From NCBI GenBank assembly GCA_963823665.1, contig CAWGMQ010000007.1:448001-512000 (forward strand): a stretch of 64,000 nt of DNA. Direction: 5' to 3'. A model generated the notes under the pieces. That model made no database searches, was not told the DNA's origin, and saw only the letters and a program-made list of their open reading frames with translations. Below, in pieces: positions 40,014 to 57,011 of the stretch. The stretch's first letter is position 1, and the number at the start of each line of letters is the position of its first letter. A program made the position numbers and the translations under genes. Origin of the DNA: an uncultured Planctomycetota bacterium (GTDB lineage Bacteria; Planctomycetota; Planctomycetia; Isosphaerales; Isosphaeraceae).

Positions 40014-40087
40014 GTGCCCGTAGCTCAATTGGATAGAGCGTTAGCCTCCGGAGCTAAAGGTTACAGGTTCAACTCCTGTCGGGCATA
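40014..40087 (+). tRNA. tRNA-Arg (anticodon CCG), no encoded CCA
   Basis: Acceptor GTGCCCG/CGGGCAT, D arm GCTC..GAGC, anticodon arm TTAGC-CTCCGGA-GCTAA, T arm ACAGG-TTCAACT-CCTGT. Confidence 0.96.
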
Positions 40088-40130: not shown

Positions 40131-40825
40131 ATGACATTGCAATTGTTTGAAACTGCAAGATGCGAACTGCCTTGTTACGCGCTGCGGTTGAACGCGTCGC
40201 ATGGACCTGTCAATCGCATCAAGCGATTCAAGACGAAGCGCAACCGATTTCTTCTGAGATTCGGTCCGAGGCGGCGGGTTCGCCTTCGGAAAGAAACCGA
40301 GAAGCTGCGATTAAAGTATGAATCGCTCATCATCGAAGGTAACCTGATTTTCGAAAGCCTGCGCCTCGCAGAGTTGCTATGGCGCAAATCGGTTCTGCAT
40401 GGCGAGTGCGTCTTTGATATCCGGCACGAGCGCGAATTCACGGACTATTACGGGCAATGGGTGCACCCGCGCATGGGGCACTAGAGACGATCGCGAAGTT
40501 CGAGGCATGCGGTCAATTTATCCGGGGATCAAAAGAGTTTCGCGAGCACTACCAAGAGGTGTCCAAGATTCTCGCTGGCGATGATCCGTTTTTCGCCGAT
40601 GCGGTCACTGCATCGAGATGGCAGCGAGCGACAGAGTTCATGCGGCCGAGCCCACAACCAGTGGAAGTTGATAGTTCGGGACGCATCTTTGATGAAACCG
40701 GCAAACAGATTGTGATGCCTGGCCTCGAGCCTGCGAAGATTCTTGGCGCATTGGAAGACGAGCGCCTCGGAAGGATGTACTCGCTCGACGAAGTTGTCGC
40801 TTCACTTGAGCAACATGAGCTATGA
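40131..40825 (+). CDS. Hypothetical protein, possible antitoxin (probable frameshift near 40470)
   Basis: ORF from ATG 40131 overlaps ORF 40457..40825, which ends ALEDERLGRMYSLDEV and overlaps the next gene. Confidence 0.4.
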
Positions 40826-41114
40826 ACTGAGGTTCTCAGGCACATTCGAGGAAGATCTGCGCCGCCTACCGGTGTGGCTTCGGCGACCGGTTCTCGATCA
40901 TGCACGACAACTTGCCGAACAGCCCGCGGCGATGAGTAAGCGGGTGGTATCCCCTCCGTACCCGCCGGGCGGCATGATGAGCACGTTCAGCATACCCAGC
41001 GGCGATATACTCCATCATGTCGTGCTTTTCTTTAAGTATACGACAGACGAGCGGGCCATTAGCGTCTATGCGATCGGGCATACGGCACTCCTTAACGATC
41101 ATGGCCGTGGATGA
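40815..41114 (+). CDS. RelE/ParE-like toxin candidate (99 aa)
   Basis: MSYELRFSGTFEEDLRRLP N-terminus and ISVYAIGH C-terminal strand. Confidence 0.5.
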   Translation: MSYELRFSGTFEEDLRRLPVWLRRPVLDHARQLAEQPAAMSKRVVSPPYPPGGMMSTFSIPSGDILHHVVLFFKYTTDERAISVYAIGHTALLNDHGRG

Positions 41115-43199: not shown

Positions 43200-43460
43200 A
43201 GTCCAAGGAGTTCAGCGCGGTTCTCGAGGACAAGAGCAAGCCCGCCAAGGAGCGACAGCGCGCGCTGCTATTCCTCATTCACTTCGTCGAGGACGTGCAC
43301 ATGCCGATGCACGTGGGTGATAACAGCGAGAGGGGTGGGACCGGGCCCAACTCCGTTTCTGCGACTTGGGAACGAATATGCACTCGCTCTGGGACGGCGG
43401 GTTGCTCTCGCAAGTGAGCAACAACGAAGATTACTGGCTCGAGGAACTGACTGTCCTAGC
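43200..43460 (+). pseudogene. S1/P1 nuclease fragment
   Basis: FLIHFVEDVHMPMHVG and, after a shift, TNMHSLWDGGLL match S1/P1 Zn-ligand motifs. Both ends are missing. Confidence 0.7.
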
Positions 43461-43464
43461 GTCA

Positions 43465-44290
43465 GCTCAGAAAGTTTGTCGTATAGGCGAATGGCTTGGT
43501 CTATCTCGCCCCAGAGGCTTCGACCGGTCCGGGCGTCGTGATCCCACTTCCAGCAACGGATGCCAGCAGCTTGGAAGTCATTGTGAAGGCGAGTTGCGAA
43601 TTCTTCGTCGGCGGTGCTATAGCTAATGAAGCACGAATAGAACTGGATCGGCTGCATCGAGTTCAGAATCAAAGGCAGCGATTGAATCAGACTCTCGGGC
43701 AGTCCGCAGCCGCGGAGCAAGACTTTTGGGATGTTTTCCTTCAATAGCAAGAGAGTGTCTGTTCCGAGTGTGCTCGGTCCGATGTGGAGGACGGAGTCGA
43801 GACCGTGTGGCTCGGATAGATCGACGTTCGCAAATATTGTGAAGTAACAACTAACCTCGCTGAGGTTGGCGTCTCCGAGTTTGGCGCTGCAGAAGTAGGC
43901 GCCGCTGAGGTCCGCACCGGTGAGGTCGGCGCGGCAGAGGTCCGCAGCGCTCAAGTCGGCGGCGCCGAGATCAGCGCCGTTGAGATCGGCATCGCGGAGA
44001 GTGGCGTGCCTGAGGTTGACACGGCCGAGGTTGGCGCCGCTGAGGTTGGCGCGGCTAACGTCCGCGCGGCTGATGTCGGCCCACCTGACGTCAGCGTCGT
44101 TGAGGCTGGCTCCAGTGAGGTTGACGCCGCTGAGTTTGGCGCGGCCGAGGTTGGCGCCGCTGAGGTCGGTGTGCCTGAAGTCGAGGAAGCTGAGGTCAGG
44201 GATTTCGTCACCCCCGCCGCGACGGCGGTTCCATTCGGCGATGCCTTCCTTTCCACCCTTGAGCAGCTCGAGCGCTACATCGCGATCCAT
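43465..44290 (-). pseudogene. Pentapeptide-repeat + TIR domain protein, TIR truncated
   Basis: A(D/N)LxG pentapeptide repeats, then FYSCFISYS..FATRLHND..GIRCW..EIDQAIRLYDKL; similarity stops there. Confidence 0.8.
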
Positions 44291-44336
44291 GTCGCTGACC
44301 TCCGTCACTCGCTTGCCTGATAGGTACGGCAAACTC

Positions 44337-44555
44337 TTATGCATCCCGCGGATCGGGCTCGAGGAAGACCGCCCCGTCGCGCCACTTGATCACGACACCC
44401 CAACGTCTTGAAGTATGACCACTCGGCCACGGGTCGGCGCTGATCTCGTCCACGTCGTATCTGCCGGCTTTCCAGTCGCGGATCGCAGGCTCGATATCGG
44501 CGAGGGTATCGACGTCGATGATGGGCTCTTGTCCGTTATGGGTGATTCGGTACAT
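44337..44555 (-). CDS. Small hypothetical protein, paralog 1
   Basis: GRYDVDEISADPWPSGHTSRRWG; aligns with 45435..45650. Confidence 0.7.
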   Translation of the reverse strand: MYRITHNGQEPIIDVDTLADIEPAIRDWKAGRYDVDEISADPWPSGHTSRRWGVVIKWRDGAVFLEPDPRDA

Positions 44556-46510: not shown

Positions 46511-46602
46511 GCGCGTGATTCTCGACATGGCGAATATTAGGACAAACGTGCTCAGCACACCGGTTACGACATTTATGCTGATATGCCCACTCTTACATCA
46601 GA

Positions 46603-46636
46603 AGCTAAAGGTTACAGGTTCAACTCCTGTCGGGCA
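46603..46636 (+). repeat. att-like duplication of the tRNA-Arg 3' half
   Basis: AGCTAAAGGTTACAGGTTCAACTCCTGTCGGGCA identical to 40052-40085. Confidence 0.92.
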
Positions 46637-46728
46637 CACTAAACAGCGTAAAGACTCACGCAAACCTTCGGTGATGACTGCTACCGAATTTGGTACGGAA
46701 CGCCTCTTCGGAAGGAACCGTTCGACAC

Positions 46729-47729: not shown

Positions 47730-47890
47730 GGTCATGTAGGGCACTTCATACACTTGAGCGGGCCGGGCTGGTCACTGTCGCGAGACGGCCGGGCCGCCAT
47801 TCGGTCTTCACATTTCTTGATCCTTCCACGACGGCCGATTGACTGAGTGCGCAAACGATGCCAGCCATTCGCGTACGAACTCGGACGATC
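47730..47890 (+). pseudogene. Module copy A: wHTH 3' remnant plus cargo-gene start
   Basis: RALHTLERAGLVTVARRPGR..; stop ends 47842, ATG 47858 (MPAIRVRT); matches 50470-50622. Confidence 0.7.
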
Positions 47891-48272
47891 GCCCTCCCGG
47901 TCGCGGCGCCGCACCGGCGGTTCGATCGGGCGACCGACGACGTCCTCTCGGCGGTTGGCAGCAACGCTGAAACGCAGATGGCAGCCTCGCCGACGAGGCC
48001 CGAGGCGCTTCGGTCGAGGGACTGAACGGGTTTGGCTCGATTTCCTTGGGCGGCATGGTTTCCCCGAATCTTTGGGGTTCAAGTCACTTCGAGACGATCC
48101 CAGTTTCGCCGAACGACCGGCGGCGGGCAACTCTGGGCCCGCAGCGGACGAAAAAACCCCGGACCTGCGAGCGTCCGGGCCGGTGACTCAAATCCGTCCG
48201 TTGCGCGATATGATGAATGTGCTCAGCACACAGGCTACGGCATTTATGCTGATATGCGCAGTTTATCCTCCT

Positions 48273-48309
48273 GAGCCAAGGGTTAAAGGCTCAATTCCTG
48301 TCGGGCATA
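48273..48309 (+). repeat. Degenerate att-like copy of the tRNA-Arg 3' half
   Basis: 32 of 37 identical to 40051-40087; shares upstream sequence with the 46603 copy. Confidence 0.85.
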
Positions 48310-48444
48310 CCGGATGTTAATCGCGTCAATCGCGCGCCTCGCGAGCCTCTCCGTGCGGCGCGGCCGAAATCCTCCCACCTAGCCGTTGGTCTACCCGGAT
48401 TTCGAGGCTCGACCACGTTCGATCACACTCGAAAGACCCATTCA

Positions 48445-48699
48445 AACTGGTGCCCCCCGGCCTCCCGGCTCCCGGGGAAATCTCTTCAAGTTGCGTCGGT
48501 CTGTTGGCTCTTGGCGGGTTGGAACCGATCGGCCGAGTTCAAGCTGGCGTTGGACGATCGGGCCGAGGTCGGCCTCTCCCGGTTCTAGGCCTCCCAGGGT
48601 TTGGTTACACTGGAACGGGCCAGGTTGATCTCCGTCGCGAGACGGCCCGGCCGGTCTCCGACTCTTAAGGTACTGGACGCTCTAGCGGGACGCGGTTAG
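48445..48699 (+). pseudogene. Module copy B: wHTH-like gene with in-frame stop
   Basis: ASRLPGKSLQVASVCWLLAGWNRSAEF..SRF*..TLERARLISVARRPGRSP; TAG at 48586. Confidence 0.75.
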
Positions 48700-48714
48700 C
48701 TCGAGAGGCCGAGT

Positions 48715-48966
48715 ATGCGGCATTTTCAGTTTCGTATCGTGACGTTCATGCGGTTCGTTGGGTTCGCAGCCGTCGGTTTCGCGGTGGCGCGTCTATTTCT
48801 CACGAGCTTTGAGTCAGGCCTTTCCGCCTCACTTTTCGGCGTATTCGGCCCACTCATTGCGGTTCGGCGTCATCTGCCGAGTCGTTCGCGGTCGCCGGAG
48901 TTACCGTGTCCACCCACAACAACGTTGACGTTAAAACCTGAAAGCGGGGAAGCCGAGAGAGTGTAG
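48715..48966 (+). CDS. Small membrane cargo protein (module B)
   Basis: MRHFQFRIVTFM plus TM; ends SGEAERV; followed 7 nt later by ATG GGG TGG AAA ACC ATC AAC. Confidence 0.6.
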   Translation: MRHFQFRIVTFMRFVGFAAVGFAVARLFLTSFESGLSASLFGVFGPLIAVRRHLPSRSRSPELPCPPTTTLTLKPESGEAERV

Positions 48967-49300
48967 GTTAATAATGGGGTGGAAAACCATCAACGGTCGC
49001 CGCGATTACTACAAATCGGAGCGAGACGGAAACCGAGTAAAACCTTGAGATTTGGTCTGCCCCCCGGTCGTTGGCGTCGGTCGTTGTCCTTGCCAGCAGC
49101 GGTGCGCAACAATCCCGAATCACCGAGATTCTCGCGCCAGGTACTGGGCTGACATCGCTGTCATCAACAAAGTCGAAGAGGTTCCGGACCCTCCGCGGCC
49201 GTGCTACACTCCGGTATATTCTCCGAGAAGACGCACTCGGGCGCGTTCCCCGGTTTCGGAAGCGCCGAAGAGACCGCGTCGTGGATGCGAGAGCCCGAAC

Positions 49301-50389
49301 ATGGACCAAATCAAAGCGGCCGCGGGCGTGCCGAGGAACGAGACCGCCTGGGCCAGTATGGGGCTGACATTCTTTGTGTCGCTGATCGAGCTTTGCCTCG
49401 TGAAACTCGCCTGGGCGGTTCTCGGCCTGCCCAGCTTCGACGCCGGCAAAGGCTTCCTCGACCTCTGGATCGGGAATATTATCGTCGCGCCGCTTCTTGG
49501 CACCCGCTTTTACAGGTCACGCGAAGTGGCTCGAAGCGCCCGCATCGCATCTCCGGGTGAGTTTTTGATCGTAACCACGGCGATCGCGTCGCTCCTCACT
49601 TTATCGGGGTCGACGCTATTGTCGCTCATTTTTGCCGCCGGAATCCGGGTCGACCCGCTTCCTGCGCAATTTGTGATAGGTTTCGTAGCTGGCGTGAGCC
49701 TGTTCGTCGCCTTTATTCTGGGCGACCGGTTCTTCCTCGCATGCGGCAAATCTTTGAGTGGAAGCTCCGTCGTGACATGGGATCGTTTGATCGCCGAGGA
49801 GGAACGCTTCGTCGCGCCGAGCTTGGCGGTCGAGTACGGGTACGATCGCCAGAGTCTCCTTGTCACATCGCTTCTCTGCCATCTCTTCTGTCTGGTCGTG
49901 ATGTTTCTTCTCTTTCTGGCTCGCCCGGGTATGTTCGGTTTTTTTCTGGCTGGCGCAATGATCGTCGCCTCCGAAATATCGGGTTTCTGGTGGTTGAGCC
50001 GCGAGGGAAGTATCATGCGCGTCGATCATGGAGGAGTGTTCGGTTATCCAACGGGACTCCCCTTCACCAGAAAGCTGGTTCCCTGGTCCGAAATCGCATC
50101 CTGCGACTTGATCACCCTCTATGACCCGTCCGGCCGCGTGGTCTGTTTCGTCCCGGTTTTCAAGAATCAGGCCAGCGAGGCACTCTTGAAATTGAACCTG
50201 GCCCAGGTGCCGCTGATCGACCAGGAGCGCATCGTGCGATACATCAAGATGAAGCTGCCCGTACCGCGGGCGGCCATCGATGACGCAGTCGGGATCGCCA
50301 AGAAAATCGCTACCAAAGACGCCGGGCTTGACCGCGGAGGCAGAGTTCTTCGCCGGTCCGAGAAGTCGGAGCTGTCTGTTGGCTCTTAA
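49301..50389 (+). CDS. Multi-TM membrane protein with PH-like C-terminal domain
   Basis: About six hydrophobic segments, then RVDHGGV..LVPWSEI. Confidence 0.6.
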   Translation: MDQIKAAAGVPRNETAWASMGLTFFVSLIELCLVKLAWAVLGLPSFDAGKGFLDLWIGNIIVAPLLGTRFYRSREVARSARIASPGEFLIVTTAIASLLTLSGSTLLSLIFAAGIRVDPLPAQFVIGFVAGVSLFVAFILGDRFFLACGKSLSGSSVVTWDRLIAEEERFVAPSLAVEYGYDRQSLLVTSLLCHLFCLVVMFLLFLARPGMFGFFLAGAMIVASEISGFWWLSREGSIMRVDHGGVFGYPTGLPFTRKLVPWSEIASCDLITLYDPSGRVVCFVPVFKNQASEALLKLNLAQVPLIDQERIVRYIKMKLPVPRAAIDDAVGIAKKIATKDAGLDRGGRVLRRSEKSELSVGS

Positions 50390-50574
50390 CGGGTTGGAGC
50401 CGATCGGCCGAGTTCGAGCCGGCGCTGGACGATTGAACGGAGTTCGGCCCCTCCCGGTTCTCGGCCTCCCGTGGGTCGGATACATTGGAGCGGGCCGGGT
50501 TGGTTTCTGTTGTGAGACGGCCGGGGCGGCCTCCGGTCGTCAGAATCCTTGACGCTTCGGCGAGAGCCGATTGA
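50362..50574 (+). pseudogene. Module copy C: wHTH-like gene with in-frame stop
   Basis: VGAVCWLLTGWSRSAEF..DD*..SRFSASRG.DTLERAGLVSVVRRPGRPP; TGA at 50434. Confidence 0.75.
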
Positions 50575-50589
50575 CTGAGTACGCAAACG

Positions 50590-51165
50590 ATGCCAGTCAT
50601 TCGCATACGAACCCGGATGATCATACTCGCGATCGCGTTGATTGTCGGTGCCACAGCCTGCTGTTACCTGGACCCCCACGAGGATCCGGTTTTCTTGAGC
50701 GTCATATGCGGCACATTGATCGCTTGCGCGCTCGTCCTGTCGGTGGTCTGTGGAGTTAGCTGCCTTGCCCTCGCCGCACCGTTTCTGAAGAAACTCCGAC
50801 GTTTACATCCGGAATCCAGCGTCGGACCGGGCCGCTTCCGGATTCGGACAATCATGCTCGTCATCGCTGTGATTGCCATTCTGATCGGGTTGCTCCGAGA
50901 CTCGATTGTTGCAACTCGCATCGCGCAGTGTTGGGTCGAGAACGATGGCTGGGATTTTTGGTTCGTAACTGACTCGGTCGAGACTGTCTCCCCTTCCCAC
51001 GTGCGTTCGTATACGGTTCACGATCTCCACAAAACTCACGTCCCCCTGCTCCAAATCGTTGCTACAGCGAGTGCGCTGATGGCTCTGGTGCGCTTCTATC
51101 ACAGAAAGCGAATGCGCCGAGCGCGGGAAGAAATCGAGTCGGAGGATGCGGCCGTGGCGGAATAG
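50590..51165 (+). CDS. Membrane cargo protein (module C) with two leader motifs
   Basis: MPVIRIRTRM and internal RFRIRTIM; C-terminus runs into the repeat shared with 56620. Confidence 0.65.
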   Translation: MPVIRIRTRMIILAIALIVGATACCYLDPHEDPVFLSVICGTLIACALVLSVVCGVSCLALAAPFLKKLRRLHPESSVGPGRFRIRTIMLVIAVIAILIGLLRDSIVATRIAQCWVENDGWDFWFVTDSVETVSPSHVRSYTVHDLHKTHVPLLQIVATASALMALVRFYHRKRMRRAREEIESEDAAVAE

Positions 51166-51373
51166 TTCGACGAGGTCCGGGCCCGCAGCCGCATGGCGAT
51201 CGCAAAGACGGACGACGCTCTAGCCGACTCGCGCACGCGGCCCCGTCTCCGGTCCGTCGTGTCGCCATCGACGCTTCATGGGCTGTTCAGCCCGTCCCCG
51301 GACCGAACCGAGCAGATAGATACTCATATCAGCCTTACCTTTGCGTCTTCTCGCCTTTGCGTGAGCCCCTCTC
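51123..51373 (+). repeat. About 250-bp dispersed repeat (partner 56620-56871)
   Basis: GCGGGAAGAAATCGAGTCGGAGGAT..GACTCGCGCACGCGGCCCCGTCTCCGGTCCGTCG.. in both copies. Confidence 0.9.
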
Positions 51374-51451
51374 CGCCGTATCCCGTGCCGGTCTCCATAC
51401 GTTACGATCCTGGGTGCGACGGTGGGAAACCCTTGATGTCAGAGGCCGAAG

Positions 51452-51796
51452 ATGCCGCGAATTCAATTCCGAGTTCGGACGATCATGCTCGCCGCCTTGT
51501 TCGCGGCGTTCTTTATGGGGATCTTGATGGCTGTGCTGCGCTCACCACTTGGGGAGAACCCATTTCACGATACATACCCCGAGTTTTTAATGATATTGAT
51601 CCAAATTTTCTTTTTTCCGATCATCGCCTTTCTCGCTTTTCTCGCCACGGTGGCGTTGGTGTGGGCCGTTCAATTCGCGGTATCCCGGAACATATTCCGA
51701 TCGTTACGACGGCAAGGAAGCCGACGATCGAGAATGGCTGGCGGACCAGACCCCCGTGCCGACGTGGATCGAAGCGGGGATTTGAAGAAAGTGTAG
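51452..51796 (+). CDS. Small membrane cargo protein
   Basis: MPRIQFRVRTIM plus two TMs; ends SGDLKKV; followed 7 nt later by ATG GGA TGA remnant. Confidence 0.7.
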   Translation: MPRIQFRVRTIMLAALFAAFFMGILMAVLRSPLGENPFHDTYPEFLMILIQIFFFPIIAFLAFLATVALVWAVQFAVSRNIFRSLRRQGSRRSRMAGGPDPRADVDRSGDLKKV

Positions 51797-51887
51797 GTTA
51801 AGAATGGGATGATCGCTCCCATACTCCGGCCCTGAGTTGAGAGGCCATGCCTCGGCCGTTTCGCGAGGCGATTCGTGTCCCTCATCC

Positions 51888-52361
51888 TCAACCTCCCTTG
51901 GTTTGGGCCTTCTTCAAGATCGCGATCTGACCTGCGTGATACAGAGCATGTTGGGCGACGCCGTGGAGCATGGCATACACAGAATACCCCTTGCTCGGCA
52001 CCTCCTCCTCCAGCCGTTCGGGCGCGACCGTCGCCACCATTTCGAGCAACCGTTGATGAGTTCGTTTGAGCTGCTCCACGGCCTGAGTCCAGGCATCCGG
52101 CGTCGGCTCGGGTGCCGGGGGCCAGTCCTGGTCGGGAGGCAACTCCACGATCACCTCACCCAAGAGCCGGCGACGGACGACATCGTGATCGGTCCCGATA
52201 TGCAGCACGTTCTCCCAGATGCTATGGGCCCCCGGGACGGGTTTCGCAACGGCTTGCTCCGGCGCGACGCCGGCCAGGATTTCGAGAACCGATGGCCCCG
52301 ACCAGGCGTTGCCCTCGAAGGCCCTCCGAAGCTGATCGACGATCCGTTCGATTTCGTTCAC
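51888..52361 (-). CDS. DinB-family protein
   Basis: AFEGNAWSGPS, HSIWENVLHI, QHALYHAGQI; GAGGA RBS before GTG 52361. Confidence 0.88.
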   Translation of the reverse strand: MNEIERIVDQLRRAFEGNAWSGPSVLEILAGVAPEQAVAKPVPGAHSIWENVLHIGTDHDVVRRRLLGEVIVELPPDQDWPPAPEPTPDAWTQAVEQLKRTHQRLLEMVATVAPERLEEEVPSKGYSVYAMLHGVAQHALYHAGQIAILKKAQTKGG

Positions 52362-52769
52362 TCTGGACACTCCTCTCGCCCTCGGCAGGCGAAGTACGAC
52401 GAGTGCTGCATGAGGTGAATAGCGACACTCCGAATTCTCCGTCCGGCCACCATTCTTGCGCCGAGGATGCACTGATCCGCTTGATGATCGCATCATACAA
52501 AACCATAATCCCGATCGCGATGCCGAGGGCCAGCACCTAGCCTTAGACCGCAATCGGCCGTGCGCACGAGATTAGATACAAATTCCCGATGTTGCGGCTA
52601 CAACCTCGACGAACTCCCGACGTGATCGCCAAGCGGCCTGGAATCGCGCCTGTCGCATCGCCAGGCGTCGGGACGTGGGATCGATCGACCGTCCTTCGAC
52701 GAACCACGTGCGAGGCGTTATGATGAATCGAGCGAACAGGCATCGGCCCTCCGCGCGGAGGAGGCCAGC

Positions 52770-53726
52770 ATGAACGATCAAGCCAAACCCATCTCCCGTC
52801 CCTGGCGACGATTCCTGCGCTTCAGCGTCCGGGGGATGATTGTCCTTGTGCTTGTAATCGGGATCGGGTTGGGCTGGCTGGTTCGAACGATCCGAAGTGC
52901 ACGAATCCAGCGTGACGCGGTGGCGACGATCACGAGAGCCCGAGGCCGCGTCGAATATGACTGGCAATGGAGCAACGGGGCATACCTTCGAGGACGTAAT
53001 CCTTGGGCGCCATGGTGGCTCGTGGATCTCATCGGAGTCGACTATTTCGGTCACGTCACCGAAGTCAGGCTGCCTCCGTCCTTGAATGCTACTGATGCAA
53101 CGCTCGCAGCGGTCGGGCGTCTCACCCGACTCGAACAACTGGTCCTTACCGGATCGTCAATTGACGACGCCGGGCTGGACCATCTGAAGGGGCTGAGCAA
53201 ACTCTCCTCCCTCAACCTCGGCTTCACGCAGGTCACCGATGCGGGGGCGGCGCATCTGAAAGGGCTGGCCAACCTGTCGCAACTCTGGCTCAACGGCAAC
53301 GAGATCACCGATGCAGGACTGGCGCATCTGAAGGAGTTGAAAAACCTGAAAGACCTCTACCTCAACAACGCGCCCATCACCGACGCTGGGCTGGCGCATC
53401 TGACGGGACTCAGCAATTTGTCCGAACTCGGCCTTTACCGCACGCACCTCACCGACGCCGGGCTGGCTCATCTAACGGGTCTAACTAACCTTTCGATACT
53501 CGACCTCAACCGCACGCGGGTAAGCGATGCCGGACTGGCGCATCTGAAGGGCCTGACCAAGCTCAATACGCTTCGCCTCGACGGCACTCACGTGACCGAT
53601 GCCGGGCTGGAGAATCTGACCGGCCTGACGAGCCTCTCGGAACTGAATCTCGCAGACACTCGGGTGACCGAAACTGGAATGATGGACTTGAAGCAGGCTC
53701 TTCCGAGGCTGAGGATTGACCATTGA
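52770..53726 (+). CDS. Membrane-anchored leucine-rich-repeat protein
   Basis: RFSVRGM leader plus TM; 24-aa repeats LxxLxLxxxxxTDAGLxHL. Confidence 0.92.
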   Translation: MNDQAKPISRPWRRFLRFSVRGMIVLVLVIGIGLGWLVRTIRSARIQRDAVATITRARGRVEYDWQWSNGAYLRGRNPWAPWWLVDLIGVDYFGHVTEVRLPPSLNATDATLAAVGRLTRLEQLVLTGSSIDDAGLDHLKGLSKLSSLNLGFTQVTDAGAAHLKGLANLSQLWLNGNEITDAGLAHLKELKNLKDLYLNNAPITDAGLAHLTGLSNLSELGLYRTHLTDAGLAHLTGLTNLSILDLNRTRVSDAGLAHLKGLTKLNTLRLDGTHVTDAGLENLTGLTSLSELNLADTRVTETGMMDLKQALPRLRIDH

Positions 53727-53804
53727 TTTCATGCCCATCCAACCGGCCTAGAATCCTCCCTGTCGCAACACCAGGGGGCGGGTGGAATCCAGAGCGCTCG
53801 ATTG

Positions 53805-54194
53805 ATGTCTCCGGAGCGCCTCATGCCGCGTGTTCGGTTGCATACTTGGATGATCATGGTCGTCAGCGCGGTGGTCGCCGTGTTGATGATCCTCGTGCGG
53901 ATCATGGTCTCCGTCGATCCCCGGCGGTTGGACGCTGCAGTCGACTTGGCGATCGGGATCGTTTTGTTCTCGATCGTGTATTTCACACCTTTCATTGGCT
54001 TGACGATTGCGCTCCGGTCGTCCACCGGGAGACCTGGAGTGGCCGCTCCCGTCGGCAACCGAGAGAAGACGCATGTCGTCAAGATGCGCCAACCGAATGA
54101 AAACCTGGCCCCCCATGCGTGTCTTCCCCTGGCCTTCTTTGGTAAACTGGAACGGCTGGTCGAGAAACGAGAATCTTCGGGCGATCCGAGCTGA
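53805..54194 (+). CDS. Small two-TM membrane protein
   Basis: MPRVRLHTWMIM leader and two hydrophobic segments. Confidence 0.55.
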   Translation: MSPERLMPRVRLHTWMIMVVSAVVAVLMILVRIMVSVDPRRLDAAVDLAIGIVLFSIVYFTPFIGLTIALRSSTGRPGVAAPVGNREKTHVVKMRQPNENLAPHACLPLAFFGKLERLVEKRESSGDPS

Positions 54195-54202
54195 GCCGCA
54201 CC

Positions 54203-55060
54203 ATGCGACGGCCGCGTCTCCGATTCACCATTGGTTCCCTGATGATCGGGACGGCAGTCTTGGGCGTCCTGTTCTGGGTCATCTTCGGCCTCTTGCGGGA
54301 TGGAAGGGAGTGGTTCAGAAACTTTCCCGTAACTCTGGTCTTCACCGAAGGGCGCGGCAAGGACCAGAAGTCACGGATGATCCTCGAGAAGCTCGAGGAG
54401 CCCGTCGCCATGTCCTTTGCGGAAGAAACTCCGCTCGAAGACCTTCTCAAATACGTCCATCAGGTGACCACGAGTCGCACGAATCAGGGCATCCCAATTT
54501 ACGTCGATCCCATCGGCCTGCAAGAAGCGGAGAAGTCGATGACCTCGACCGTGCGCAACATGGAACTCGACGGCGTGCCGCTGCGCCGGACCTTGCAACT
54601 GCTGTTGAAGCAGCTCGACCTGGCCTACTTTGTCGAGGACGGGGTCCTTTGCATCACTTCGCTAAAGTCGATGGGCCGTTTCGACCCGACAATGCATGAA
54701 CCATCGCCGACCATGGAAAGGGTCAAGAAGGCAGAACGAGGGGAACTCTCGCCTACCGAGATGAAAGACCTTATCGAGCTTCTCAAATCACAGGCGGAAG
54801 CCAGAAGGCTGGCCGTGGCCGCGGCAGAGGAACCCTTCGACCCAAGCGTGGGGGCCGACGCCCTCGTTTCGCCAGGCGCCGCGCGGGCGGAAAAGCCGCC
54901 GGAACGCAATCCGTCCGGTGAAAAGATAGAGCCCGAAGTGGCAAGGCCCGATCGCGAACAGATGAGCCTCCTCCTGAGTGAACTGCGGGAACTGATCAAG
55001 GTTTTGAGGTCCAAAGAGCAGCCGAAGAACGCGCCCGGCGAGAAGGAGCCGGTTCGTTAA
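54203..55060 (+). CDS. Membrane-anchored protein with STN/secretin-N-like domain
   Basis: PRLRFTIGSLM leader; TPLEDLLKYV..IPIYVDPIGL..GVPLRRTLQLLLKQLDLAY. Confidence 0.75.
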   Translation: MRRPRLRFTIGSLMIGTAVLGVLFWVIFGLLRDGREWFRNFPVTLVFTEGRGKDQKSRMILEKLEEPVAMSFAEETPLEDLLKYVHQVTTSRTNQGIPIYVDPIGLQEAEKSMTSTVRNMELDGVPLRRTLQLLLKQLDLAYFVEDGVLCITSLKSMGRFDPTMHEPSPTMERVKKAERGELSPTEMKDLIELLKSQAEARRLAVAAAEEPFDPSVGADALVSPGAARAEKPPERNPSGEKIEPEVARPDREQMSLLLSELRELIKVLRSKEQPKNAPGEKEPVR

Positions 55061-55206
55061 CGACTCGCGCCCGCCGGTTGGATCACAACCCGTTTGCTCC
55101 ATCGCGCAACCACGAAGCGCCAAGAGACACCGAGCGTGAGAGTTGCACTCCGGCCTGACTGGTGGTCGAGCTGACCTGGTCTTCGGGCCGAGGATTAGAG
55201 AACGAC

Positions 55207-55749
55207 TCAAACTAACCACGTGATGGCTAACCACGCGACGGCTAACCACGCGAGCAGCGTCGGGATGAATCCGGTAACAGGGAGGATCACCGAGCGCTTT
55301 CGGCCGCGGTATGCGACTTTCACGCCAGCAGCACCCACAACTGTTCCGGCTATCAGTATTTCGAAAAACATCGACGAAGGAAGGATTGCCGTGCGCTGTT
55401 TCACCACGCGGTGTCCCCATGCATCTATTGCTTCAACGGCATATCTGTCGATGTCGTAAAGGCCCTGATATCCAAAACGTTCGCCCTTGCCCCAGGTCGC
55501 GAGAAGGAAGATCGCGCCCCAACCGATCAGATAAGCGATAACACCGCATGACCCAGCGATGGATCTGCGGTACTTGCGTACCCAAGAAACAAATATGCCT
55601 GCCTCGTTCTCGAGCCAGGACAGTGGTCGCTCCGACAGGGATGTCTGGGAGTTGTCCAGTTGAGCGTCAGGCCTTTTGTGAGCAAGCCGCATCGCTAACT
55701 CCTCGGACCGAAAAGCCTCCGTGGTTAGGTTCCCCTTATCGTCCATCAT
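55207..55749 (-). CDS. Hypothetical membrane protein
   Basis: Three hydrophobic segments; start codon uncertain. Confidence 0.5.
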   Translation of the reverse strand: MMDDKGNLTTEAFRSEELAMRLAHKRPDAQLDNSQTSLSERPLSWLENEAGIFVSWVRKYRRSIAGSCGVIAYLIGWGAIFLLATWGKGERFGYQGLYDIDRYAVEAIDAWGHRVVKQRTAILPSSMFFEILIAGTVVGAAGVKVAYRGRKRSVILPVTGFIPTLLAWLAVAWLAITWLV

Positions 55750-55846
55750 CGGGCCCGTCGGTTCAAGCGGGGAGTTGAGGGCTCAAAAGTGACGGAGCGA
55801 GTCCGGCGAATCGATTTGTCGATAACCTTGATATGTCAGCCGAGTA

Positions 55847-56178
55847 GTGGCGGCCTCCGTCCTGGCTCACCCGAACCCGGTGGCCGGGCCGAAGCGCCGG
55901 CCGTTGTACGGGCCGATCTCTTGGAGTTGGTGGCTCCCGGCCTCTCGGCTCCCGGGGAAGATCCTCCAAGTCGGGGCCGTCTGTTGGCTCTTGGCGGGTT
56001 GGAATCGATCGGCGGAGTTCGAGCTGGCGTTGCATGATCGGGCCGAGTTCGGCTTCTCTCGGTTCTCGGCCTCCCGTCGCCTTGATACACTAGAGCGGGC
56101 CGGATTGGTCGTACCGTCCGACGGCAGGGCCGATGTCTGATCGTGACGATTCTGGAAGTTACGGTAGGAATCGGTTGA
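55847..56178 (+). pseudogene. Module copy D: most complete wHTH-like gene (shift near 56110)
   Basis: LYGPISWSWWLPASRLPGKILQVGAVCWLLAGW..SRFSASRRLDTLERAGLV; second frame RRQGRCLIVTILE ends at 56178. Confidence 0.75.
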
Positions 56179-56193
56179 ACGGGGTGTCCGACG

Positions 56194-56442
56194 ATGCCAC
56201 GTATTCGCTTCCGAATCCAGACGGCAATGGCTGTGATCGCCGAATCTGGTGTACTCATGGGCCTTGTAGTATGGGCGTTTCGCGATGACCCCGGCGTAAT
56301 GACCCCCATTTTGATCTTCTTCCTTGCCGTTAGCACACACGTAGTGGTTCGTCTCCGCCGGTCGACACGACAGCGGAGGGACTTGATCGCCTGATTGCGC
56401 GTGTGAGCGCCAGCGCGAAGCAGGGAGCCCTGGAGACTGTAG
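56194..56442 (+). pseudogene. Small membrane cargo gene (module D) with internal stops
   Basis: MPRIRFRIQTAM; TGA at 56392; in-frame TAG at 56440 sits in the conserved junction. Confidence 0.6.
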
Positions 56443-56449
56443 GTCAAAA

Positions 56450-56842
56450 ACGGGATGGAAAACCATCAACGGACGCCGCTATTACCACAAGTCGAAGCGT
56501 GAGGGAGCCCGAGTCAAAACCACCTACTTTGGGGCGGGAGAGTCGGGCCTGTTGATTTCGCTCTCGGATCGGGAGGATCGGGCCGAGCGAGAGGCCGAGC
56601 CGGTAAAACGTCGGGACGAGCGGGAAGAAATCGAGTCGGAGGATTCGGCCGTGGCGGAATGGTTCGACGACGTCCGGGCTCGTAGCCGCATGGCGACCGC
56701 CAGGACGGGCGACGCTCTAGCCGACTCGCGCACGCGGCCCCGTCTCCGGTCCGTCGCGTCGCCGTCGACACCTCATGGGCCGTTCAGCCCGACGCCGGAC
56801 CGACTCGAGCAGGATAGTTACCCATATCAGCCTTTCATTTGA
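56450..56842 (+). pseudogene. 'MGWKTINGRRY' hypothetical gene with mutated start (ACG)
   Basis: GWKTINGRRYYHKSKREGARVKTTYFGAG..EREEIESEDSAVAEWFD; fragments at 48974, 51123 and 51804. Confidence 0.65.
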
Positions 56843-57011
56843 GTCTTCGCGCCTTTGCATGAGCCTCTCTCTACTTGTTATCACTCACTCCAAACACAAA
56901 TCGCACTGAGTTCATCTCTCCCTTGGCGGCTTCACGTCTTTGCGTGAACCACTCGTGAACGTGGCCGGGAGCCAATCTTGAGCGAACAACAGACCGGTCT
57001 AACCGAGCCTT

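Follow-up and report, generated by a model that had tools for sequence, protein, structure and literature searches.

Among the systems closest to the locus described here, PICIs are of comparable size, follow an integrase-xis-replication gene order, and carry a small terminase gene. The hotspots of P2/P4 satellites are small, high-turnover loci, each flanked by a pair of conserved genes in an integrative element of ~10 kb; their contents are reported to be swapped over a conserved core, form recombination chimeras, and include defence-like genes. Tycheposons integrate at tRNA genes and are described with an inward-facing tyrosine integrase, an excisionase-like gene, a replication module, and an optional terS; partial tRNAs and remnants stack up and become the seeds of islands (10.1101/2020.12.28.424599). 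Pipolins are integrative, encode their own DNA polymerase, and combine a minimal core with exchangeable, defence-rich cargo (10.1101/2024.05.22.595293). The element reconstructed here resembles each of these systems in the respects listed, with the small-terminase match of its last gene being weak.

The window that we analysed is a 64,000-nt stretch of DNA from an uncultured Isosphaeraceae bacterium (GCA_963823665.1, contig CAWGMQ010000007.1, positions 448,001 to 512,000, forward strand). A preliminary description had proposed that it holds the core of a small mobile element, equipped with an exchangeable slot and piled up beside a tRNA gene. This proposal is borne out: an intact parent element exists in relatives, the slot contents vary, and some slots are empty. 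We consider it likely that the units in the window are right-arm relics of a ~9.5-kb, self-replicating, tRNA-integrating Isosphaeraceae element that has a hotspot in the form of this slot.

Repeated units and their parent element

Units composed of a rep tail, a cargo gene, a promoter-like motif, and a stub of the MGWKT gene are repeated at tRNA islands in this genome and in a congener, where they have lost the core and share common break points. These units have accumulated at three tRNA islands here, including the one in the window (Table 1). Partial tRNAs are present but no integrase was found in the window, and tRNA was the sole match of an Rfam scan at gathering level. Among the loci compared, the arm upstream of the att-like tRNA copies occurs only in the 46538 copy and at 48216. 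An MGWKT::rep junction falls at the identical 10 nt in three copies in genome G001, and a similar junction occurs in G000 (contig C4). Stacked integrations, together with deletion and duplication at short homologies (the head DNA of the cargo genes and the 10-nt MGWKT/rep match), would yield such arrays. The unrelated membrane gene inserted into one MGWKT remnant has no match in Pfam, NCBIfam, PHROG, or PADLOC.

Table 1. Features of the tRNA-Arg island in the window
Positions	Strand	Feature	Remarks
40014..40087	+	tRNA-Arg(CCG)	island's integration target
46538..46643	+	att-like copy of the 3' end of the tRNA plus upstream arm	first stacked integration
47732..47842	+	rep (tandem wHTH) 3' remnant, copy 1	
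47858..48025	+	relic of leader-type cargo, related to 50590 but truncated and with a frameshift	80% to 50480-50637 across 158 nt
48209..48314	+	att-like copy of tRNA 3' end with arm, second	
48445..48699	+	copy 2, remnant of the second winged helix of rep, with TAG at 48586	stop also in short-read contig
48715..48966	+	83-aa membrane cargo of leader type	ends at motif-internal TAG
48942..48970	+	bipartite promoter-like motif of MGWKT operon	
48974..49048	+	MGWKT gene, first 24 codons only, then stop	
49052..50389	+	unrelated gene for a multi-pass membrane protein, inserted within the MGWKT remnant	start uncertain
50362..50574	+	copy 3 of the rep remnant, with TGA at 50434	
50590..51165	+	single frame holding two leader modules, joined near 51103 to the 3' part of MGWKT	second head at 50833
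51123..51373	+	3' piece of MGWKT with a spacer repeat rich in hairpins	89% to 56620-56871
51376..51436	+	copy 5, a short remnant of the rep tail	overlooked by preliminary description
51452..51796	+	114-aa cargo of leader type with two hydrophobic segments	ends at motif TAG
51772..51812	+	promoter-like motif and 3-codon MGWKT stub	
53823..54194	+	leader-type cargo behind LRR gene, without rep tail	79% to G001C5 cargo
55847..56178	+	copy 4 of the rep remnant, with a frameshift near 56110	
56194..56394	+	66-aa cargo of leader type	86% to G001 cargo with different upstream flank
56418..56680	+	promoter-like motif and MGWKT codons 1-77, ACG start	ACG also in short-read contig

Few-contig metagenomic assemblies are prone to indel errors and the array is not spanned by any read, which might suggest an assembly artefact. 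However, the copies are just 63-89% alike, similar arrays occur in G001, G033, and G008, and key lesions and junctions are identical letter for letter in short-read contigs, so this explanation is largely refuted and extremely improbable. The contigs, from four public DNA runs that are possibly not independent of the assembly, match positions 48404-48629, 48900-49145, 56008-56158, and 56365-56655 with 0 differences and leave 50712-51062 and 51414-52466 uncovered. The copies are thus genuine wherever they could be checked.

The intact parent in relatives is a tRNA-integrated element of 9.3-9.6 kb, which in G018 and G020 lies between the tRNA and an att repeat. Its gene order is integrase, regulator, DUF1580, a small gene, a ~245-aa gene, PolA, and rep, followed by the slot, MGWKT, a 193-aa gene, a small HTH gene, and the att repeat. 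The preliminary description had called for a search for an intact element with an integrase or a primase; the parent carries a tyrosine integrase (PF00589) and a family A polymerase (PF00476; E 2e-18 and 5e-20). The DUF1580 gene, which weakly matches HTH_17, is a putative excisionase. The last gene is weakly TerS-like (an HTH stretch matches the small terminase subunit of PHROG with E 5e-4), and the 193-aa gene falls near unnamed clusters only in the ESM Atlas. Leader-type cargo was found beside a full-length PolA at no locus examined, and therefore an active element bearing such cargo has not been seen; the only near-case is P0133, where a full-length rep runs into head-like DNA. The element is a small, DNA-polymerase-carrying mobile element of soil planctomycetes that is apparently undescribed. 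A literature search on PolA satellites, Isosphaeraceae islands, and DUF1580, mostly of papers available without subscription and without bioRxiv supplements, returned no description of it.

The wHTH-like gene of the preliminary description corresponds to the latter half of a protein with tandem winged helices, here called rep. The structure model of this protein (pLDDT 80) has two tandem winged-helix domains of initiator fold, and its best match among 48,161 chains is the plasmid initiator pi (2nra; Z 9.2, rmsd 5.0, 184 of 200 aligned, 11% identity), followed by RctB (Z 6.0). The modelled fold suggests that rep is a pi/RepE-type initiator. No match to rep was obtained in Pfam, in 50,697 phage records, or in plasmids, and Foldseek gave nothing at E<=0.001. 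Relatives of rep and MGWKT were not found in viral contigs, which is no proof of absence. The four rep copies originally listed in the window are real, but a fifth, ending in TGA at 51434-51436, had been missed. As had been noted, these flanks align as DNA (76-83% between copies) and are decaying through in-frame stops in copies 2 and 3, to which the frameshift in copy 4 can be added.

The slot between rep and MGWKT is an insertion hotspot

MGWKT lies no more than 1.6 kb from the rep end in 33 of 71 rep ends. Nine of these 33 slots are empty (46-75 nt), 16 hold leader membrane genes, 7 hold other DNA, and 1 is a short spacer; the leader-type cargo is a trait of one sublineage. The slot between rep and the motif upstream of MGWKT is a true insertion hotspot that can be empty. 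One of the 7 other contents matches a PADLOC nuclease model; PADLOC matches were confined to a slot gene at locus L164 and a gene beside rep at L157, both of which are non-membrane.

Exactly 15 nt do separate each of the four rep stops first listed (ending at 47842, 48699, 50574, and 56178) from an ATG downstream. This spacing does not generalize: it is 15 nt in 10 of 33 cases and 21 nt in 8, and the geometry, which had been thought fixed, is constant only inside subtypes. A SGEAERV-type tail and a 7-nt gap had also been assigned to the cargo. Neither is a cargo feature, because the same DNA motif, which belongs to MGWKT, is present in empty slots. Reading the tail as a protein motif was rejected since the DNA motif is frame-independent. 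Only one of the three MGWKTING genes starts as originally written (48974), whereas 51804 reads ATG-GGA-TGA and 56450 has an ACG start.

The motif was found upstream of 61 of 67 MGWKT starts, at 8-12 nt in 50 and displaced by 16-61 nt in 11, using a pattern tuned by eye (a stricter, earlier pattern gave 34 of 67). A sigma-70 scan returned 3 sites versus 2.0 expected, none at the motif. In the fixed spacing of its two boxes and in its position, the motif agrees with an ECF sigma promoter, whose consensus it presumably resembles. It would act as a promoter for an alternative (ECF-like) sigma factor, from which a mostly leaderless MGWKT message is made; this would explain the constant 7 nt. Planctomycetes average 40 ECFs per genome (PMC7826278). 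It is rather doubtful that the motif is instead a binding site or origin for Rep/MGWKT. Its failure to fit the sigma-70 consensus is compatible with such a role, as is the finding that the strict pattern has 4 matches in G000, all before MGWKT genes (a control pattern also has 4). Nevertheless, the motif accompanies MGWKT at loci without rep, it is single rather than iterated, with two conserved boxes and a variable 13-nt centre, and an SD-like word appears once the motif sits further from the start (7 of the 11 displaced cases). A literature search on leaderless promoters, mostly of papers available without subscription, found no description. MGWKT itself gave no clear match in a fold search (best Z 5.3) and only weak Pfam matches (9 of 24 members matched SSV1 D-335-like, with E 0.034 at best).

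Exchange and possible retention of the cargo genes

The leader-type cargo genes are small, mostly two-helix membrane genes with a common head, M-x3-RFRIRTIM, and 26 of 33 have at least two hydrophobic segments. Several window copies required revision. The cargo end at TAG 51796 stands, but its start is 51452 (TGA 51434-51436, 15 nt, ATG) rather than 50590; the 56194 frame stops at 56394 and not at 56442; and 47858, formerly an ordinary copy, is a frameshifted and truncated relative of 50590 that has no hydrophobic segment. A sixth family member begins at 53823 behind an LRR gene, and its relative in G001C5 sits behind a rep tail. One of the six copies is clearly broken. The whole 50590..51165 unit is 79% identical to G001:C5:2629344-2630072, and no shorter homologues of the 50590 protein were found; internal heads are sites of module fusions. 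The cargos have no match in PADLOC, Pfam, or PHROG, the 51452 product is near unnamed clusters only in the ESM Atlas, and a literature search on the head motif and planctomycete N-terminal motifs (mostly papers available without subscription) found no description. NCBIfam NF053726, a “WLR motif membrane protein,” likewise has an Arg/Phe-rich N-terminal head before a hydrophobic helix. It matches the internal head of 50590 weakly (E 0.047, 13.5 bits versus a cut-off of 38), and a genome scan with it gave no match, with the scan's controls also blank.

The 33 leader cargos fall into 27 unrelated DNA groups, and cargo pairs whose rep tails are 84-88% identical (ungapped values in this grouping, which indels distort) have bodies that cannot be aligned. 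Aligned values were used for the ratios and pair comparisons below, for which nine homologous pairs, not independent, were chosen by eye. In eight of the nine, similarity begins at the leader and the upstream DNA is unrelated, with upstream identities of 0.50-0.63 against a random baseline with a mean of 0.55 and a 95th percentile of 0.63. Between G000 and G001, cargo bodies keep their frame and an identity of 77-86%, the DNA immediately upstream is at baseline, and similarity blocks in the tRNA-Phe islands begin at the start codon. In some pairs, low upstream identity possibly reflects flank decay instead of a swap.

Judged from these alignments, cargo is replaced rather than hypermutated. 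Hypermutation of the interiors, whether DGR-like or through strong diversifying selection, could produce 27 groups among 33 copies and the two pairs with dN/dS of 1.6 and 2.0, but we regard it as highly improbable given that dN/dS is below 1 in seven of nine pairs and that the divergence of homologous bodies does not exceed that of the flanks. In the single co-inherited pair, cargo and upstream DNA are each 81% identical, which does not support the rapid diversification that had been one option of the earlier proposal. Cargo bodies would be swapped by ordinary homologous recombination at the ~30-40-nt head.

Breakpoints clustered at the head could also mean that a dedicated cassette system, similar to integrons or shufflons, recombines site-specifically at a DNA site inside the head. 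Of the 30 heads with Arg at codon seven, 23 use CGA (versus a background of 15-19%), and the head stretch has short inverted arms. We nonetheless view this system as very unlikely. The CGA bias is explicable by kinship or gene conversion, neighbouring silent positions are free to vary (codon 5), the commonest head form is not a perfect palindrome, and the only recombinase genes adjoining the arrays are fragments of the element integrase. In G000, which is 92% complete, the integron integrase model TIGR02249 had 18 partial matches but none above cut-off. As for attC sites, cargo ends show no recurring inverted repeat among the 25 longest repeats listed, and the Rfam scan at gathering level matched nothing but the tRNA. 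A palindromic recombination site in the head was considered and found weak.

Selection on the cargo, as previously suggested, holds in part. The dN/dS values of 0.29-0.74 in seven of nine pairs show purifying selection in most cargo pairs, and pooled pN is 0.22 versus a pS of 0.34; the two remaining ratios come from pairs with few silent changes. On the other side are those two pairs, the broken window copy, and the rep tails, whose ratios are similar (0.25-0.70). The units might accordingly be neutral island debris, duplicated, decaying, and functionless, with cargo frames open because they are short and recent. The absence of the parent-element core from G000, the broken copies (47858, the rep stops, the ACG start), rep-tail ratios as low as those of the cargo, and two cargo pairs near or above 1 agree with this view. 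We find it unlikely because the cargo bodies shared by G000 and G001 stay in frame behind unrelated DNA and because hydrophobic segments are so widely kept.

Under the relic explanation favoured above, the host may keep these tiny membrane genes after the element decays, and each retained promoter would read through its MGWKT stub into the next cargo. Their likeliest role, which we put at somewhat less than even odds, is that the cargos are envelope-level anti-phage or anti-element proteins, acting by exclusion or abortive infection, in a diversified array kept by the host. It is rather unlikely that large-genome Isosphaeraceae have domesticated the hotspot of a satellite-like PolA/Rep element into a diversity system of the host, made of coreless arrays in which the alternative-sigma promoter of the element drives dozens of tiny membrane proteins as a shuffled exclusion or sensing repertoire. 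The head would then be both a membrane-targeting signal and a recombination joint, maybe bound by a protein, and the arrays would be switched on either by a sigma factor from a phage or by stress on the envelope.

Relation to described elements

The findings add an apparently undescribed integrative element family, with its own family A polymerase and a pi-like initiator, to the little-known mobile elements of this phylum. Its rep and MGWKT genes provide two anchors for collecting new defence candidates, and the promoter-like motif is a candidate planctomycete promoter that is ready to test. Empty slots, filled slots, and coreless arrays form a natural series, which is the presumed route of island growth from element hotspots. 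If the membrane genes are protective, they would be membrane defences of a new kind, forming a family of small genes that are shuffled.

The parent pairs a PF00589 integrase with a DUF1580 gene (weak HTH_17 match) whose excisionase role is inferred, as in the integrase and excisionase of PICIs. Unlike PICIs, it has no recognizable primase-helicase, its terS match is weak, and it has no match in viral contigs. The parent in G018 and G020 has the inward-facing integrase at a tRNA and the partial-tRNA bounds expected of tycheposons, but the hosts differ, the replication module is PolA/Rep, and no small serine recombinase was seen in the element (10.1101/2020.12.28.424599). The pipolin polymerase is a primer-independent PolB rather than family A (10.1101/2024.05.22.595293). 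The P2/P4 core genes (psu, int, capsid, etc.) were not recognized here, where the core consists of PolA, the pi-like Rep, DUF1580, and unknowns. The P2/P4 hotspots are reported to swap contents without pseudogenization, whereas the arrays here are coreless with pseudogenized flanks, and the dominant cargo of one sublineage is, unlike theirs, a single tiny membrane family with a common head. The element works like the P2/P4 satellite hotspots or the tycheposon islands, but it is probably not a member of either.

Relic units in the window and their parent element

The repeated units in the window are real. At all four junctions named in the preliminary description, the stop codon of a decayed copy of a tandem winged-helix (wHTH) gene, here called rep, is followed after 15 nt by an ATG, and the flanks of the units align as DNA with 63-83% identity between copies, as had been claimed. 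The repeated module is thus present, but its geometry is less regular than was written. The small membrane gene (cargo) that ends at 51796 had been assigned to one of the listed copies and in fact belongs to a fifth unit; another cargo frame had been given too distant an end (56442); and the genes beginning MGWKTINGRRY (MGWKT) said to follow three of the cargos are present only as partial genes. Several lesions and junctions show zero differences in short-read contigs of four public DNA runs, which span only parts of the array and whose independence from the assembly is uncertain; an assembly artefact has a negligible probability.

Positions of features in the window and in related islands
Feature	Position	Remark
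tRNA-Arg(CCG)	40014-40087	array region downstream
Repeats of its 3' end	46592; 48263	
ParE-like toxin and upstream partner	40457-41114	right behind tRNA; related pair in C10 tRNA-Phe island, just before rep remnant
Pentapeptide-repeat and TIR protein	43268-44344	weak PADLOC TIR matches; probably further defence-like island content
Cargo	47858	frameshifted relic
MGWKT	after 48966	stop reached after 24 codons
Frame	50590	two modules fused to 3' part of MGWKT
Short dispersed repeat (D8)	51315-51373; 56813-56871; 56898-56956	also on G000 C4, directly before truncated rep copies; may mark deletion end points
Cargo of fifth unit	51452-51796	
MGWKT remnant	after 51796	three codons only
DinB-family gene	51876-52421	94% identical to DNA of G033, from another genus, there too beside an MGWKT remnant; probably transferred recently via a shared hotspot pool
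LRR genes with related Arg/Phe head	52770-53726; G000 C4 199.7-217 kb; G000 C10 and C8	
Sixth cargo family member	53823	LRR gene in front
Head-bearing 285-aa gene	54126-55050	91% to G001:C4:4176071, a different locus
Cargo	56194-56394	
MGWKT	after 56442	ACG in start position
MGWKT and 193-aa pair without rep	L023 (G000 C8 360-364.5 kb)	
Seven tRNA genes in a row	G011, L061:11810-12845	directly behind MGWKT and 193-aa pair

An intact element with an integrase had been proposed as a check, and complete elements of 9.6 kb and 9.3 kb were found in two relatives (G018 and G020, respectively), each bounded by a tRNA and a copy of that tRNA's 3' end. Their genes are, in order, a tyrosine integrase (PF00589), a regulator-like gene, DUF1580, a small gene, a ~245-aa gene, a family-A polymerase (PF00476), the wHTH gene, a slot, MGWKT and a 193-aa gene, and several elements end with a small HTH gene that has weak terminase-small-subunit matches. 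Because integrase, DUF1580 and polymerase leave no trace in the window, we interpret its units as right-arm relics of this parent. Host polA is the only family-A polymerase gene found in the window's own genome (G000). The element family itself is established; no description of the element or of the shared N-terminal head of its cargo was found in the literature, of which subscription papers were poorly covered.

The full wHTH protein has ~230 aa and two repeats. Its structural model (pLDDT 80) best matches the pi initiator (Z 9.2, rmsd 5.0, 184 aligned) and then RctB (Z 6.0), and a Foldseek search with the model gave no significant E-value. We name it rep, as a predicted replication initiator. 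The protein was detected in 23 of 121 family genomes and, with 7 candidates scored in each genome, in at least 8 of the 401 genomes of the phylum; MGWKT was detected in 23 of 61 genomes searched, and each count includes G000. Most named records that match the wHTH protein come from Isosphaeraceae or Planctomycetota. Contigs L135, L138, L152 and L153, which look non-planctomycete (two named records are not Planctomycetota), also carry the ~245-aa gene, PolA and a distant rep in this order, and the replication module may thus have a wide distribution. Pairs of MGWKT and the 193-aa gene without rep, at L023, L061, L062, L064, L068, L069, L071 and L073, keep a promoter-like motif, and this module is probably used by other elements too. 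A Singulisphaera acidiphila plasmid bears a 31% relative of the 193-aa gene.

Contents of the slot and the motif before MGWKT

Among 75 rep ends found, 71 had enough sequence, and MGWKT lies within 2.5 kb of 35 of these, within 1.6 kb of 33 and out of reach for 36. The 33 slots, several of which are close kin, are empty in nine cases (46-75 nt), carry head-bearing (leader-type) cargo in 16, a short spacer in one and other DNA (316-1523 nt) in seven. These differing contents, together with the parent elements, bear out the earlier proposal of a small mobile-element core with an exchangeable slot, and the series from empty to filled slots to arrays is established. Within the slots, a gene at L164 fits a PADLOC endonuclease model (E 2e-19 over 99 aa); next to rep on L157, a contig without MGWKT, another gene fits PDC-S11 (E 8e-123). 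The membrane cargos have no PADLOC match. Envelope-level defence or exclusion is our best guess for their role, a tentative one drawn purely from position.

MGWKT is preceded by a motif composed of AAGCGGGG, 13 variable bases and YGTAGKYYA, which also occurs in empty slots, in slots with unrelated contents and at MGWKT loci without rep. It was found before 61 of 67 MGWKT starts with a hand-tuned pattern (34 with a stricter first pattern), 8-12 nt from the start in 50 and 16-61 nt away in 11, seven of which have an SD-like word in between. In G000 a strict pattern has four matches, all before MGWKT, and a control pattern also has four. We regard the motif as a candidate promoter, from which MGWKT would mostly be translated leaderless; the likeness is presumably to an ECF promoter. 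PMC7826278 describes planctomycetes as rich in ECFs.

The SGEAERV-type tail and 7-nt gap, earlier listed as cargo features, are DNA that precedes MGWKT in empty slots as well. Cargo frames simply extend into the motif: a stop at its TAG was flagged for 13 of 33 (inspection showed one false positive and one missed case), and others terminate in another frame. Nor is the 15/7-nt spacing a general rule: of the 33 cargos, 10 have a 5' gap of 15 nt (one via a GTG; 12 with its ATG) and eight have one of 21 nt, nine show other values and in six the gap is undefined.

Probable exchange and possible selection in the cargo family

The 33 cargo copies, from this window and nine other loci, fall into 27 DNA groups; on a crude scale, 26 of the copies show at least two hydrophobic segments. 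Their bodies are unalignable even in pairs whose rep tails are 84-88% identical, a divergence for which hypermutation of the cargo is a very improbable source. Nine homologous pairs were picked by eye. One is co-inherited (body 81%, upstream 81%); in the other eight, identity over the 120 nt upstream is at baseline (0.50-0.63; random mean 0.55), and the bodies share 71-86% in seven of these pairs and 51% in the eighth. The cleanest swap is the cargo at 56194, with an 86% twin in the congener G001 behind a 21-nt-type MGWKT::rep chimera; flank decay may contribute in some other pairs. Cargo modules also occur singly or fused at internal heads, and in the G001 tRNA-Arg(CCG) island an LRR gene precedes two different family members. 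The large LRR family clusters in the same tRNA islands; G000, G001, G008 and G033 each have dozens of matches to it.

A head profile has at least 34 matches in G000 (150 of 360 candidates scored); of the best 15, 14 lie in the three relic loci, six of these being training sequences. Weaker head relatives are present on other membrane genes. A site-specific cassette system would fit the head, where codon 7 is CGA in 23 of 30 Arg codons versus 15-19%, but no IntI was found over the cut-off in G000, and we consider such a system improbable. CGA, an uncommon codon, is favoured at specific positions in head codons 5-12, which also bear short inverted arms; both may stem from kinship or gene conversion.

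Selection on the cargo had been suggested, and its dN/dS is indeed mostly below 1 (0.29-0.74 in seven pairs, 1.6 and 2.0 in two), with pooled pN 0.22 versus pS 0.34 (p 2e-7, for pairs that are not independent of one another). For rep tails, the ratio in seven pairs is 0.25-0.70. These values overlap those of the cargo, and therefore the ratios alone do not prove stronger selection on it. That the units are merely neutral debris is unlikely.

Origin of the arrays and comparison with known systems

Other G000 islands hold three fuller units adjoining tRNA-Arg(ACG) on contig C4, of which one retains an intact 100-aa MGWKT gene followed by a 193-aa gene, and remnants adjoining tRNA-Phe on C10; in G001 the tRNA-Arg(ACG) array is larger and further units stand at tRNA-Phe. 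Partial tRNAs repeated in the island argue for stacked integrations, and break points common to several copies argue for duplication after truncation. Three C4 copies share the rep start position and the repeat in front; in three G001 copies the joint between MGWKT and rep falls at a single 10-nt match, and a similar joint occurs on G000 C4. No full polymerase stands beside leader cargo in the six genomes carrying such cargo, which may reflect domestication or a lineage effect. In P0133, a full-length rep protein runs into head-like sequence.

We consider the following mechanism the most probable. The slot would be a hotspot of a self-replicating integrative element, in which one cargo family has diversified and exchanged bodies by homologous recombination at the head; loss of the core would leave arrays, and retained MGWKT promoters would express cargo by read-through. 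The element is a member of neither P2/P4 nor the pipolins. It works like the P2/P4 hotspots (PMC9122126, PMC13586616), builds islands like the tycheposons (10.1101/2020.12.28.424599) and is parallel to the pipolins (10.1101/2024.05.22.595293).
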